A DNA stretch of 60,939 nt, the filler included. It is 9 parts of 9 records of this genome, joined end to end, with 100 filler letters (N's around TTAATTAATTAA, not from the genome) between each part and the next. Parts side by side here need not be neighbours in the genome. Positions count along the whole stretch, not along the records: positions 55,030 to 60,939 come from SRR31156797_60966; 8 more parts are not named here. The stretch is one strand, 5' to 3'. The notes beneath the pieces were generated by a model. The model was given only the letters and a program-made list of their open reading frames with translations, was not told the origin of the DNA and searched no databases. Shown here in pieces: positions 55,393 to 60,915 of the stretch. The position numbers and the translations under genes are program-made. Within the stretch, counting starts at the first letter, position 1; every line of letters begins with the position of its first letter.

Positions 55393-56544
55393 TTGATTAA
55401 ATTGAGAAAATTTGTATCTCCGGAATTCATTTTTGGACCAGGGTCCCTGGAGACTGTAGGACAATATTCAAAGAATTTTGGTGCCAGGAAAGCCTTGGTT
55501 GTCAGTGATCCCGGGGTGGTGGCGTCGGGGTGGGCTGGACGGGTCTGTCAAATTTTGGATGGAGTTAAGGTGGCGTATGAATTGTTTTCCGAGGTTAGCC
55601 CCAACCCCAGGGTAGATGAGGTCATGTCCGGTGTTGACATGTATAAAACCAATGGATGTGATGTGATTGTTTCTATTGGTGGCGGAAGTCCGATTGATTG
55701 TGCCAAAGGCATTGGCATTGCCAGTTCAAATAATAAAAGCGTTCTTGATTTTGAAGGGGTTGATAATGTTGAAATTCCAGGGCCGCCTTTAATTTGTATT
55801 CCAACAACGGCTGGCGCTTCCGCAGATGTTTCTCAATTCGCAATTATTAATAATGTCGTCCAAAAGGTTAAAATCGCCATTATCAGTAAAAAGGTTGTCC
55901 CTGATGTCGCATTGATTGATCCTTCTACCACCACAACAATGGATCCATATTTGACAGCCTGCACAGGCATGGATGCACTATCTCATGCCATTGAGGCCTT
56001 TGCGTCGTCAGCCCATTCTCCGATTTTTGACTTACACGCCCTTGAGGCGATTCGTTTAATCAGATCGAGTCTAATTGGGGCAATCAATTCTCCCGATAAT
56101 ATTCAACTCCGAAATAAAATGATGCTGGGAAGCCTTGAGGCGGGTTTGGCTTTTTCCAATGCAAGTCTTGGTGCCGTCCATGCCATGGCCCATAGTTTGG
56201 GCGGTTTTTTGGATCTCCCCCATGGCGAATGCAATAGTATGTTGCTCGAGCATGTCATTTCCTTTAATTATGATGAGATCCCTGAACGATATGAGAAAAT
56301 AGGTCAGGCACTGGGTCTTTCCATGAAGAAAATGATCCCAAAGGATAGGAAGAAGATAATTCTGGATAGGATCAGAGAATTTAAAAATGCAACGGGAATT
56401 ACCAACACGTTAGGCGCTCGGGGGCTTCAAAAAAGTGATATCCCTGAACTTTCAAAAAAAGCAATGAATGATCCCTGCATGATAACAAATCCCCGGCGCC
56501 CGACCCTGAAAGATATTGAGGCCATTTATGAAAAAGCCCTCTGA
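55393..56544 (+). CDS. ercA: Iron-containing alcohol dehydrogenase-like regulatory protein (ErcA type)
   Basis: LRKFVSPEFIFG N-terminus, GGGS, PTTAG, DALSH, HAMAH, PHG; overlaps a downstream signalling gene. Confidence 0.8.
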   Translation: MIKLRKFVSPEFIFGPGSLETVGQYSKNFGARKALVVSDPGVVASGWAGRVCQILDGVKVAYELFSEVSPNPRVDEVMSGVDMYKTNGCDVIVSIGGGSPIDCAKGIGIASSNNKSVLDFEGVDNVEIPGPPLICIPTTAGASADVSQFAIINNVVQKVKIAIISKKVVPDVALIDPSTTTTMDPYLTACTGMDALSHAIEAFASSAHSPIFDLHALEAIRLIRSSLIGAINSPDNIQLRNKMMLGSLEAGLAFSNASLGAVHAMAHSLGGFLDLPHGECNSMLLEHVISFNYDEIPERYEKIGQALGLSMKKMIPKDRKKIILDRIREFKNATGITNTLGARGLQKSDIPELSKKAMNDPCMITNPRRPTLKDIEAIYEKAL

Positions 56545-58060
56545 TGACGAATTCAATCTGCAGTTTAATAAAATCATAGGGCTTGGAGAGACATCCACCA
56601 GAAAAAGTTACTACCCTGAATTACAGCAAAGAATATCAGAACTGGACCTGAAGAATTCAGAGTTACTAAAAGAAATTGAGACAAGAAAACAGGCCCAAAA
56701 AGAGTTGTCTAAAAGTGAAGCATTATACCGGACGCTCGCTGAAAATATCACTGAAGGCGTACTTATAAGCGCTTCAGGAAAACTTGTCTATGTCAATCAG
56801 GCGCTTGAATCCATATTGAGACGAAGAAAAAAAGAACTTATTGGCATGGAACTTTTTGAAATTTTACATAGGGATCACCATGACAATTTATACGATCTAA
56901 TTGAGAACCATCGAAATACCCGGTCCCCTGAAAAGTTCAGATCACTTTGTATCCGGGGAGATGATAAAAGAATTTGGCTGCGGGGAACCTATCAAATCAT
57001 TCAATGGCAGGGTGAAAAGGCTGGTTTGATTACGGCAAGGGATGTTACAGAACAGGTGGAAAAAGAGAAACTTGCCAATGAAATTCAGCAGGAAAATTTA
57101 TTGTTAAAATCTAAGAATTTACACCGGTATGGATTGGGACCCCTTGTGGGAACCAGTGAAAAAATGCAGGGTGTATATGAAAAAATTATTAAAGCCGCGG
57201 CCATAGAAGCCAATGTGGTTGTATATGGTGAATCCGGTACCGGCAAGGAGTTGGTGTCAAGGTCCATCCATGATTTGAGCAATAGAAATGAAAATCCGTA
57301 TATTGCTGTCAATTGCGGCGCTATACCGGAAAATCTTTTTGAAAGTGAGTTTTTCGGTCATAAAAAAGGGGCTTTTTCCGGTGCAAACATAGACAAAATA
57401 GGGTTCTTTGAAAGCGCAGCCCAAGGGACCCTGTTTATGGATGAAGTCGGAGAAATACCCCAAAGCCTTCAGGTTAAACTGCTCAGGGCCATTGATGGTG
57501 GTGGATACACCCCGGTTGGAAGCACCCAGACAAAAAAATCGGATGTGCGGATCATTGCTGCAACAAATCAGGATTTACAATCAATGACCGAAAAGGGGAT
57601 CATACGGGAGGACTTTTTCTTCAGAATTCATATTGTACCTATTCATCTGCCACCCTTAAAAGAGCGCAAAGAAGATATTCCCCTTTTAATTTATCACTTC
57701 GTTAAAAAAATGGGGGGGACAGAAAAGAATGTTTCCATTCCAGATGCCATTGTAAAAAAATTTCAAGAACATGACTGGCCCGGTAACGTTCGTGAACTGC
57801 AAAATGCTGTATCCCGATATCTTGCATTCAATACAATTGAGTTTTCAAAAGAAGAGGGTGATAGGATAGAAGGCCAAACAAGTTTTGGGGACCCCTCTTT
57901 AAAAAGAGCCTGTCTTAATGATCTTGTCAATGGCTATGAACGGCGGATTATCCAAAACGCATTATTTGAAACAAAGGGTAATATTTCAAAAGCCGCAGAC
58001 TTCCTGAAGATTGGGAGACGGTCTCTCCAAAGAAAAATTACACGGCTTGAAATTTATTAG
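56528..58060 (+). CDS. PAS-containing sigma54-dependent activator (AAA+ plus Fis HTH)
   Basis: GESGTGKE, GAFSGA, FMDEVGE, WPGNVREL, GNISKAADFLKI; PAS-like segment; no receiver domain. Confidence 0.92.
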   Translation: MKKPSDDEFNLQFNKIIGLGETSTRKSYYPELQQRISELDLKNSELLKEIETRKQAQKELSKSEALYRTLAENITEGVLISASGKLVYVNQALESILRRRKKELIGMELFEILHRDHHDNLYDLIENHRNTRSPEKFRSLCIRGDDKRIWLRGTYQIIQWQGEKAGLITARDVTEQVEKEKLANEIQQENLLLKSKNLHRYGLGPLVGTSEKMQGVYEKIIKAAAIEANVVVYGESGTGKELVSRSIHDLSNRNENPYIAVNCGAIPENLFESEFFGHKKGAFSGANIDKIGFFESAAQGTLFMDEVGEIPQSLQVKLLRAIDGGGYTPVGSTQTKKSDVRIIAATNQDLQSMTEKGIIREDFFFRIHIVPIHLPPLKERKEDIPLLIYHFVKKMGGTEKNVSIPDAIVKKFQEHDWPGNVRELQNAVSRYLAFNTIEFSKEEGDRIEGQTSFGDPSLKRACLNDLVNGYERRIIQNALFETKGNISKAADFLKIGRRSLQRKITRLEIY

Positions 58061-58061
58061 C

Positions 58062-58688: not shown

Positions 58689-58710
58689 ATATAAATTTGG
58701 AGGTTAAAAA

Positions 58711-60915
58711 ATGTTAAAAAAACTCAAATTCAACCAGCAGCTTTTGGTCATTGGGATTTCAGTAACCCTGATCCCCCTGATCATTGCTTTTGCCTTTGTA
58801 TTTAACCAGAATAAACATAAAACCCAACTGGCAAAGCAGGAAAGCATCAAAATGGCTGATGCAGACCTTCAGCACATTGTTGAAAGTATTTATACCCTTG
58901 CTAAAACCCAGCAGGAGGTGATCGAGAAAAATCTTGAAAATTCATTGAATGTTGCCGAAGATCTGCTGCTAAAAGCAGGGGGGATTCAATTTAGCCCTGA
59001 AGACCAGACATGGGATGCCGTCAATCAATATTCAAAAGCAATTGCTTCTGTGACACTTCCCAAAATGCTCATGGGAGAAACCTGGCTGGGCAAAATCAGC
59101 AATAAGAATCAGCCGGCCCCCCTGGTGGACGAGGTGATGAAATTAGTCGGAACAACCTGTACGGTGTTTCAATTGATGAATCCTGGCGGCGATATGCTGC
59201 GGGTTGCCACCAATGTAATTAAGAAAAACGGTCAGCGGGCCATTGGCAGCTATATCCCAAGTACCAATCCAGATGGTTCTGCCAATCCGGTTATTTCAAG
59301 TGTTAAACAGGGGCAAACCTATGTGGGAAGGGCCTATGTCGTAAACGGATGGTATATCACCGCCTATAAACCCCTTTATGATCAAAACAGGCAGCTTGTG
59401 GGCATGCTCTATGTCGGAATTCCCCAGGAAAGCACCACCACCCTTCGCAAGGTGGTTATGGATATGGTTATCGGTAAAACCGGATATGTTTATGTTCTGG
59501 ATAAAACCGGCAGTTACGTCATTTCCGAAAACGGCGAACAGGATGGGAAGAACATAATAGACAGCAGGGATGAGACCGGGCAGTACTTCATCAAAGCCTT
59601 AATTGGAAAGGCCCTAAGGCTGAAAGGCGGTATGACCGCAGACCATACCTATCAGTGGAAGGACACCAAAGATAATAGTGTTAAAACCAAAAAAGTTAAA
59701 ATGGCCTATTTTAAAAAATGGGACTGGATTATCAGCGCCGGCAGTTTTGAGGAAGAATTTATTGAATCCGCCCTCCTGATTGAGGAAAGTGCACGGAAAG
59801 GAAATATTGCCCTCGTGATCCTTATCGGCATCTCTGTCCTTGCCGCCATTTTTGTCTGGATTCTGGTGGCGCGACGTGTCATGAAACAACTTGGAGACGA
59901 TCCGTCTGAAATCGCCAGGATTGCGGACAGCATAGCCCGGGGAGATCTTACCGTTGAGTTCACCAGTGATAAAGAAATTACGGGTGTCTATGGCAATATG
60001 AAAGAAATGAGAGACAATTTGACCCGTATGTTCACTGATATCTCAGGAGGGGTCCAGACGCTTACATCCTCCTCCACTGAACTTTCAGCCGTTTCCCAGC
60101 AGATGGCGGCAGGGTCTGAGCAATCGTCCGAAAAAGCGAATAATGTGGCTTCAGCTGCCGAAGAGATGTCCACCAGTATGAACAGTGTGGCCGCGGCCAC
60201 CGAACAGACCACTGCCAACCTTCAGATGATTGTTGCTGCAGCAGAAGAGATGTCTGTGACGATTAATGAGATTGCTGAAAATACAGCCACGGGAAGTCAG
60301 ACCACGACTGACGCAGTTGAAAAAGCAGAACATATTTCCAGGAGAGTAAATGACTTGGGCAGGGCGGCTTTGGAAATTTCCAAGGTTACGGAGACCATTT
60401 CAGATATTTCAGCCCAGACAAATCTGCTGGCTCTTAATGCGACCATTGAAGCGGCAAGAGCAGGTGAGGCAGGTAAGGGGTTTGCCGTTGTTGCCGGGGA
60501 GATTAAGGCCCTTGCTCAGCAGACGGCCCAAGCGACCGGTGAAATTGGTTCAAAGATCGATGACGTTCAGTCCAGCACACAGGAGTCTGTCGCAGCCATT
60601 GGATCCATTGTGGAAATCATTAATGAAATAGATATCATTGTGACCTCTGTGGCAACCGCCATAGAGGAGCAATCGGCCACCACCCAGGAAATTTCCAGTA
60701 ACGTCAGCCAGGCTGCTGCAGGTGTTCAGGAAGTAAATGAAAATGTCAATCAGACATCTGTAGTGGCAGGAGAGGTTACAGAGGATGTTCACAACGTCAG
60801 TCAGGCTGCCGATGAAATAAATACAGGCAGTCTTCAGGTGAACTCAAGTGCCCTGGAATTGTCAACCCTGGCTGAAAATCTTAATGAAATGGTCAGTAGA
60901 TTTAAACTGAATTAA
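58711..60915 (+). CDS. Methyl-accepting chemotaxis protein with Cache sensor domains
   Basis: Two TMs, MLRVATNV...[19 protein letters not shown]ache motifs, [27 protein letters not shown] signalling hairpin. Confidence 0.95.

Follow-up and report, generated by a model that had tools for sequence, protein, structure and literature searches.

A predicted ErcA-linked sigma-54 activator next to a chemoreceptor operon

The subject of this analysis is a stretch of 60,939 nucleotides (nt), which we call the window, and in particular the group of genes at its end, where the gene for an ErcA-like iron-dependent alcohol dehydrogenase (Fe-ADH) overlaps that for a sigma-54 activator, and genes for a receiver-like protein and a methyl-accepting chemotaxis protein (MCP) follow. 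The window is made of nine pieces joined by linkers of N44, stop codons and N44 (at 5161-5260, 11993-12092, 19762-19861, 29561-29660, 35221-35320, 41777-41876, 47163-47262 and 54930-55029). The GC content of the pieces ranges from 38% to 63%, and they are thus probably from different organisms or from a loose bin. Neighbourhood across the linkers is meaningless, and the real gene context is the last piece only, 55030-60939 (5.9 kb). The assignment to an anaerobe of the Desulfobacterota follows the names that the sources give to homologues, and should be read as a probable one. An earlier note on this DNA, made from the sequence alone, had proposed an alcohol-sensing circuit here, and each of the features that it listed is present where it placed them. 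The features are as follows.

55363-55368, plus strand: TATAAT, perhaps the -10 hexamer of the ercA-activator operon; the TTG start comes 24 nt after it
55393-56544, plus strand: ercA, encoding an Fe-dependent alcohol-dehydrogenase-like regulatory protein of 383 amino acids (aa), TTG start
56528-58060, plus strand: gene for a sigma-54 enhancer-binding protein (the activator), 510 aa from the ATG, occupying the place of ErcS
56528-56653, plus strand: N-terminal ErcA-partner motif, activator residues 1-42, core GLGE-x-S-x-RKSYYPELQ
56723-57043, plus strand: PAS domain (Pfam PAS, 46.2 bits), with a coiled-coil-like linker before it
57143-57646, plus strand: AAA+ sigma-54 interaction domain (Pfam Sigma54_activat, 213.8 bits), with the GAFSGA loop at 57368-57385
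57938-58045, plus strand: Fis-type helix-turn-helix (HTH) DNA-binding domain (Pfam HTH_8, 40.9 bits)
58062-58078 and 58083-58099, no strand assigned: boxes 1 and 2, putative upstream activator sites, a 17-nt inverted repeat with a 4-nt spacer
58155-58171, no strand assigned: box 3, putative upstream activator site, a pattern match
58222-58234, plus strand: IHF-like site, a match to WATCAANNNNTTR between the boxes and the promoter
58263-58278, plus strand: -24/-12 sigma-54 promoter, TGGCAC-N5-TTGCT, an exact consensus match
58335-58688, plus strand: gene for a stand-alone pseudo-receiver of 117 aa (Pfam Response_reg, 44 bits)
58711-60915, plus strand: gene for a transmembrane MCP with a periplasmic Cache_3-Cache_2 sensor (Pfam matches)

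With regard to the ADH, the description as ErcA-like proved sound. The protein scores 627.7 bits against the NCBIfam equivalog NF041833 (Fe_ADH_ErcA), for which the curated cutoff is 550 bits, and the match covers positions 2-382 of the 382 in the model; the runner-up NCBIfam family gives 350.3 bits. It also matches the Pfam families Fe-ADH and ADH_Fe_C, and so has the fold of the Group III Fe-ADHs. ErcA is a discrete family in the 401 Desulfobacterota genomes surveyed, with 19 loci in 18 genomes scoring at least 578 bits and the next match at 495; the true ErcAs match the model from position 1-5 and most of the ADHs below the cutoff only from position 10-12. A search of species-genome contigs gave four further ErcA loci with 56-62% identity, in metagenome-assembled genomes (MAGs) whose record titles name a Desulfopila, an Anaerolineae, a Thermotogae and a Methanobacteriaceae. 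In a tree of 28 ErcA sequences the window protein groups with P0121, P0122 and P0123 (support 100/99); a pair from Desulfoluna has a long branch within a group of weak support, and the tree neither shows nor excludes a single origin of the activator-linked ErcAs.

Many Desulfobacterota carry two Fe-ADH paralogues about 4 kb apart, which score about 425-435 bits against the ErcA model and thus fall below the cutoff. Examples are at G212:C40 46051-51248, G242:C3 147450-152645 and G396:C41 282-5662. Presumably these pairs are catabolic clusters separate from ErcA.

The ATG of the activator gene is at 56528 and the ADH stop codon ends at 56544, giving the 17-nt overlap that had been described; there is an alternative in-frame TTG start at 56516, and in the resulting 514-aa reading the PAS domain is at residues 70-176. 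The Pfam domains found are PAS, Sigma54_activat, AAA_lid_14 and HTH_8, and a Pfam scan of the protein did not detect Response_reg, HisKA or HATPase, in keeping with the description of a PAS-AAA+-HTH activator with no receiver domain. Being without HisKA, HATPase_c and receiver, the protein is not a member of the ErcS family. At residue 281 it has a GAFSGA loop, the Thr-to-Ser variant of GAFTGA.

The activator is 42-57% identical to many one-component PAS-AAA+-HTH proteins, and what sets it apart is the first 40 or so residues, which carry the motif GLGE-x-S-x-RKSYYPELQ at residues 14-40. This motif is absent from the closest activator paralogue, P0008, which has an unrelated N-terminus and whose remainder, beginning at residue 43, is 57% identical. 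It is found instead beside other ErcAs: in 22 of 22 other ErcA loci the gene after ErcA begins with it, in the fuller form of roughly K-I-I-G-L-G-E-x-S-x-R-K-S-Y-Y-P-E-L-Q-x-R-L-x-E-L-E. The 22 comprise the four loci on species-genome contigs and 18 of the 19 loci of the Desulfobacterota survey (the nineteenth, G001:C41, is L001), and they come from Desulfobacterota, Chloroflexota, Thermotogota and an archaeon. Sixteen loci have a 17-nt overlap between ercA and its partner gene, two have one of 14 nt and three one of 11 nt, with a gap of 354 nt in the remaining locus. In alignment A2 the residues K26, S27, Y29, P30 and L32 are invariant in all 24 sequences.

The partners in the 22 loci differ from the activator in their outputs, 19 being PAS kinases (some with a receiver) and two PAS-GGDEF-EAL proteins, with one cut by the end of its contig; the kinase of the archaeal MAG has an HWE/HisKA_2 core. 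ErcA-adjacent kinases from four phyla match the activator only at residues 2-71, 2-41, 8-44 and 10-44, with 49-67% identity. When 11 of the 22 partners were compared with NCBIfam, none of them reached the cutoff of any curated kinase family, and the NahK/ErcS model gave these 11 kinase partners no more than 89 bits against a cutoff of 400. As the motif marks the ErcA-adjacent partner in every one of these loci, we take the activator to be an analogue of ErcS with a sigma-54 output. With the body of P0008 so similar and its N-terminus unrelated, and with the kinases matching the N-terminus of the activator only, the motif looks to have been grafted onto an existing PAS activator. The proposal that the pair is wired without phosphorelay gains support from the ErcA-partner motif on a protein with neither receiver nor kinase domains.

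It could be argued that the ADH is an ordinary catabolic oxidoreductase sharing an operon with an activator that senses a signal of its own through its PAS domain, with no input from ErcA. Residues 14-380 of ErcA align without gaps with chain 3owo, the ADH2 of Zymomonas, and ErcA has D194, H198, H263 and H277, which from the ligand numbering of ADH2 we take to be the metal ligands, together with the GGGS glycine stretch for NAD binding. All of the metal and NAD residues checked are intact, the four putative ligands are invariant in alignment A1 (24 sequences), and the relatives of ErcA in the PDB are working enzymes: ADH2, methanol dehydrogenases, propanediol oxidoreductase and FucO. It also fits this explanation that P0008, so similar to the activator in its PAS-AAA+-HTH body, presumably works alone. 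However, ErcA passes the equivalog cutoff, which the catabolic paralogues of the same phylum do not reach, being lower by 80 bits or more; the next gene in all 22 ErcA loci encodes a signalling protein that shares the motif, irrespective of the kind of output domain; and there is no aldehyde dehydrogenase or other catabolic gene on the 5.9-kb contig. In Pseudomonas, according to the literature, induction is abolished on loss of the ADH. We thus regard a purely catabolic role as unlikely, and retain the coupling of ErcA to its partner as the better explanation of the pairing.

The motif is widespread. A profile built from it, run against 1.84 billion representatives of clusters made at 50% identity, found 1352 protein clusters with E<=0.001, and in 147 of the best 150 clusters the match starts within the first 12 residues. 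The Pfam scan covered 83 of the 117 motif-bearing representatives of at least 250 aa; 77 of the 83 have PAS_9 and 64 HATPase_c, with GGDEF in three, HD in two, SpoIIE in two and DUF835 in one, and Sigma54_activat was found in none of the 83. Likewise none of the best 150 motif clusters has a GAFTGA-type loop. Among whole genomes the motif is present in five of five that are ErcA-positive and in none of five that are ErcA-negative, and five of the six motif proteins adjoin ErcA. A record of Acetoanaerobium in a plasmid collection has an ADH of 538 bits, just under the cutoff, followed by a motif-bearing partner, in whose translation (read directly, with no Pfam scan) the ErcA-partner motif precedes a GGDEF motif and an HD-GYP-like end. 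The motif is our best candidate, from these comparisons, for the site at which ErcA contacts its partner, and a contact of this kind would be made in the window pair as well. A predicted complex of ErcA with activator residues 1-65 gave scores of 0.13 and 0.15 against a mark of 0.34, their own alignments not entering the prediction, and speaks neither for nor against binding. The motif string was not found in the literature searched, a search confined to main texts without supplements.

A more distant arrangement was seen on a Tsukamurella plasmid (NZ_LR134451.1, L130, 2962-6124), on which the gene for an ADH that misses the cutoff, with 462 bits, overlaps that for a histidine kinase whose motif is degenerate. 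Next comes the gene for a response-regulator transcription factor, and the group is directly preceded by genes for an NDMA-dependent methanol dehydrogenase, MoxR and a VWA protein. This hints at an actinobacterial branch of the ErcA module tied to methanol oxidation.

In contrast to the motif itself, the motif-bearing sigma-54 activator is rare. Only eight of the 120 best activator homologues carry the motif, and the GAFSGA loop is present in all nine motif-bearing activators (that of the window and the eight homologues), whereas P0008 has GAFTGA. In three overlapping samples, orthologues with the motif number 0 of 401 genomes for the phylum, 0 of 401 for the class and 2 of 401 for the order, the two being G869 and G882, both Desulfoluna; the G869 activator is identical to P0010, which its source names Desulfoluna limicola. 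All 22 activator matches listed for the phylum sample begin at query residue 31 or later. A match in G485 that covers residues 8-506 was rejected as an orthologue, its translation being without the motif. No activator orthologue was found in the order and class of G087, represented by only 8 and 9 genomes, nor in a search of metagenome contigs, in which the best of 55 loci had 42% identity. One metagenome fragment, L114, has an ADH gene followed by a motif-bearing gene. A search of five genomes for relatives with MurB, encoded on another piece of the window, gave nothing, and with GC contents so different that piece may be from another organism.

The spacer between the activator and receiver genes is 274 nt and holds the boxes, the IHF-like match and the promoter. 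The three upstream activator sites (as sequence), the IHF-like site and the -24/-12 promoter of the earlier note are thus all confirmed. Boxes 1 and 2 are 94% complementary as an inverted repeat. The box pattern TGSGACANNNTGNCSC, with up to one mismatch, has five strand-matches in the window, all of them within 58062-58170; 1.11 would be expected over the entire window, and two of 100 shuffles gave at least five matches. The boxes are 92-201 nt upstream of TGGCAC-N5-TTGCT, with box 3 at 108 nt, and 57 nt separate the end of the promoter from the GTG with which the receiver gene starts. The other two elements are less distinctive as sequences. The window has four matches to WATCAANNNNTTR, where 2.77 are expected, and as such matches are not rare the IHF-like site is suggestive only by its position; similarly TGGCACNNNNNTTGCW has two exact matches in the window, and four with up to one mismatch against 2.39 expected, so that the promoter counts by its placement only. 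Presumably the activator binds the boxes.

The other exact promoter match in the window, TGGCAC-N5-TTGCA at 30465-30480, is about 90 nt upstream of a 147-aa open reading frame (ORF) at 30569-31012. By eye, with no family scan, this ORF resembles a small heat-shock protein of the Hsp20/IbpA type.

It is also conceivable that the boxes and promoter belong to another activator, or that boxes 1 and 2 are just a hairpin at the end of the transcript, with the real targets of the activator elsewhere. As RNA, boxes 1 and 2 form a hairpin of -24 kcal/mol (z -4.7) that starts 2 nt after the activator stop codon, with no U tract; exact -24/-12 matches are, as said, not rare in the window; and relatives carry dozens of sigma-54 activators, with 48 matches in G001. 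On the other side, box 3 stands alone, outside any hairpin, and activator genes usually adjoin their target operon, which counts against another activator being involved. The pattern TGSGACANNNTGNCSC was derived from the window boxes, and for that reason the loci of Desulfoluna provide an independent test of it.

In the case of Desulfoluna there are two loci of 19.5 kb each, L128 (from G869) and L129, in which ErcA (561.8 bits) is followed, with a 17-nt overlap, by the motif-bearing activator. After about 680 nt there come a CheA-like gene, cheW, a dCache MCP, a short MCP-signalling ORF and a second dCache MCP. Box matches of the TGSGACANNNTGNCSC type number six in L128 against 0.54 expected and seven in L129 against 0.53, counts that were reached in one of 200 and none of 200 shuffles respectively. 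All are in two intergenic regions of the che/MCP cluster, one site being about 100 nt after the activator gene and three between the first MCP and the next gene. In both loci there is a TGGCAC-N5-TTGT about 100 nt downstream of the three-box cluster, and in L129 a TGGCAC-N5-TTGA about 110 nt after the single site, which is itself near-identical to box 3. The HTH stretch RRSLQRKITR is identical in the window and Desulfoluna activators. The comparison shows that the geometry of putative sites and promoter is conserved before che/MCP genes in Desulfoluna. With the pattern recurring as spaced sites in two intergenic regions near an orthologous activator, at 12-13 times the expected number, and with the same recognition stretch in both activators, we judge it quite improbable that the window boxes serve another protein or only end a transcript. 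The pair lies before che/MCP genes in Desulfoluna and before the receiver-MCP genes in the window, and the claim that the target of the activator is a chemoreceptor operon is thus supported by position as well as by comparison.

Desulfoluna genome G869 encodes at least two ErcA-type ADHs. One of them, P0191, is 65% identical to the window ErcA and 57% identical to the activator-adjacent copy, from which it is distinct.

Closer homologues give indirect support. The closest homologues of the ADH (79%), activator (74%) and MCP (86%) are each listed on a contig of 157151 nt (P0121, P0004 and P0392), and a second trio, with 78% for the ADH, 76% for the activator and 53% for the MCP, is listed on a contig of 12089 nt (P0122, P0002 and P0430). 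Such trios show co-location, not adjacency.

With regard to the likely target genes, the receiver has E51 at the position of the acceptor Asp and N7-L8 at that of the acidic pair, and keeps the conserved Thr and the Lys-Pro. Its match to the receiver family leaves no difficulty over the fold, and as both acceptor Asp and acidic pair are replaced the term pseudo-receiver is correct. For the MCP, Cache_3-Cache_2 scores 303.6 bits and MCPsignal 105.5 bits, and hydrophobic segments at about 7-34 and 361-392 flank the Cache region, all as expected of the Cache MCP that had been proposed.

The nature of the receptor bears on the signal. The ErcA-activator pair might sense the cytoplasmic NADH/NAD+ ratio, with no particular alcohol involved, and the receptor then serve an energy-related taxis. 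It would suit this that ErcA keeps its NAD-binding features and that the ErcA partner always carries a PAS domain, and a review (PMC12997753) leaves undecided whether there is direct sensing or 'redox coupling with YiaY'. However, the sensor of the induced receptor is a periplasmic double Cache, a type that binds small extracellular ligands, and in that review the Pseudomonas module responds to short-chain alcohols. A pure redox signal seems to us unlikely, and it is to be noted that it would change the signal and not the wiring.

We consider it probable, taking the evidence together, that ErcA is coupled to the sigma-54 activator without a phosphorelay and that the activator controls the operon of pseudo-receiver and chemoreceptor. 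The wiring as predicted is well supported by comparison; the signal would be an alcohol, an aldehyde or the redox state, and the outcome would presumably be chemotactic. There are several observations that weigh against it. As all of the catalytic residues checked are kept, sequence does not separate a sensor from a working enzyme, and as boxes 1 and 2 fold into so strong a hairpin, part of the putative upstream activator sites could be a transcript-end structure. The motif is one defined here and not a curated family, in a set of compared proteins to which the Pseudomonas ErcS does not belong, and one motif-PAS-PocR protein is an orphan, there being no ADH next to it (L132, G031:C8, 869-2113, minus strand). 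In Desulfoluna the -12 elements are imperfect, with TTGT and TTGA instead of TTGC, the element after the single site in L128 has two mismatches, and a tblastn search of these loci did not find the pseudo-receiver. MCP homologues with 77-82% identity are on contigs of 26467, 121522 and 76215 nt for which no activator or ADH homologue is listed. Finally a contig of 3807 nt is listed for P0001, an activator homologue, and likewise for P0009, a paralogue without the motif, and the neighbour of P0001 may be a second activator and not the receiver-MCP pair.

The circuit of ErcA and activator would operate in the following way. As their genes overlap by 17 nt, ErcA and activator should be made together, and could be produced in fixed proportion. 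ErcA would report that a short-chain alcohol or aldehyde is present or is being turned over, or else the associated NAD(H) state, and the signal would enter the activator through the N-terminal motif, the adjoining coiled coil and the PAS domain, with no phosphotransfer. The active AAA+ ring would bind the three boxes at 58062-58171, the DNA would be bent at the IHF-like site, and the activator would open the sigma-54 promoter at 58263-58278 in an ATP-dependent step, switching on synthesis of the pseudo-receiver and the Cache chemoreceptor. Since the ErcA partner is itself a transcription factor, the signal would go straight to promoter opening, and since the circuit would switch on a chemoreceptor operon, the set of chemoreceptors would become signal-dependent.

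The closest known system is ErcA-ErcS (YiaY-PP_2683/YiaZ) of P. aeruginosa and P. putida. The review (PMC12997753) describes yiaY/ercA and PP_2683/ercS of Pseudomonas as co-cistronic and both as required for induction of the alcohol oxidation genes; an AlphaFold3 model has YiaY and PP_2683 in contact by their N-terminal domains, and induction is impaired when a His of YiaY that interacts with NAD(P) is mutated. The window pair resembles ErcA-ErcS in having an ADH of the same curated family, co-cistronic with a cytoplasmic PAS signalling protein, and in that the ADH is proposed, for Pseudomonas in the literature, to produce a signal related to alcohol, or to pass one on, for its partner; the predicted N-terminal contact in the Pseudomonas pair also fits the conserved motif seen here. 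It differs in that the partner is not a hybrid kinase, being instead a sigma-54 AAA+ activator that has a DNA-binding domain of its own, that there is no phosphorelay and no AgmR-type response regulator, that the likely target is a chemoreceptor operon and not the genes for pyrroloquinoline quinone (PQQ)-dependent alcohol oxidation, and that the relatives are named by their sources as Desulfobacterales and not as aerobic pseudomonads. The pairing of ErcA with a kinase is thus already known from Pseudomonas, and it is the proposed sigma-54 variant of ErcA signalling that is new. We found no paper that links ErcA to a sigma-54 activator in the limited literature collection that was searched.

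There are more distant parallels. In the NosP-NahK (ErcS') system of P. aeruginosa, an analogy drawn in the review (PMC12997753), a separate sensor is likewise encoded beside the kinase and modulates it by contact. NosP is a haem-based NO sensor, in contrast to the ADH discussed here. Among sigma-54 activators there are well-known cases of control by contact with a partner protein instead of by phosphorylation, namely NifL-NifA and PspA-PspF. NifL is a PAS flavoprotein, its gene co-transcribed with that of NifA, and PspA is a membrane-stress protein; both inhibit the AAA+ domain. In the window the partner is of the ADH type, and docking would presumably be at a short N-terminal motif that is otherwise found mostly on kinases. 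The one-component PAS-AAA+-HTH activators of Desulfobacterota have the same domain order as the window activator and are without the N-terminal motif.

The review describes the mechanism of signalling from YiaY to its partner as unresolved (PMC12997753), and the short near-invariant motif gives a candidate interface for this step. Judging by record titles and source names, the ErcA module reaches far beyond the pseudomonads, to strict anaerobes and archaea. We suggest, more tentatively than for the circuit itself, that ErcA and the motif of about 40 residues are a portable, phosphorylation-independent cytoplasmic input device, present in many phyla and in archaea (more than 1300 clusters), that may have been plugged onto kinases, enzymes of cyclic di-GMP, HD/SpoIIE phosphatase-type outputs, a PocR protein and a sigma-54 activator, and that its grafting onto a PAS activator here may have made synthesis of a chemoreceptor dependent on ErcA. 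The locus would be a natural domain swap from kinase to sigma-54 activator with a direct transcriptional read-out. It is also predicted to be one of the rare cases in which a dedicated sigma-54 switch, linked to a metabolite, controls a chemoreceptor gene. For reconstitution of ErcA signalling in a reporter strain this one-step version would be the simplest system, and it would make a compact part for an alcohol biosensor.

No -24/-12 element was found upstream of ercA (55031-55392), and there is thus no sign of sigma-54 autoregulation. The TATAAT at 55363-55368 has a weak -35 region, and is for this reason weak evidence and was not listed by the sigma-70 scan.

Some minor observations may be added. 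The orphan motif-PAS-PocR gene in G031 is followed by a GAF-HisKA ORF, and that genome has a canonical ErcA-kinase pair elsewhere. In the piece of the window before the one discussed, there is a gene of the prolyl-oligopeptidase S9 family on the minus strand at 53689-54837, with its N-terminus cut by the contig end, and a 134-aa ORF at 53227-53631, perhaps a fragment, whose match to the DAO FAD-oxidoreductase family is limited to the C-terminal third.

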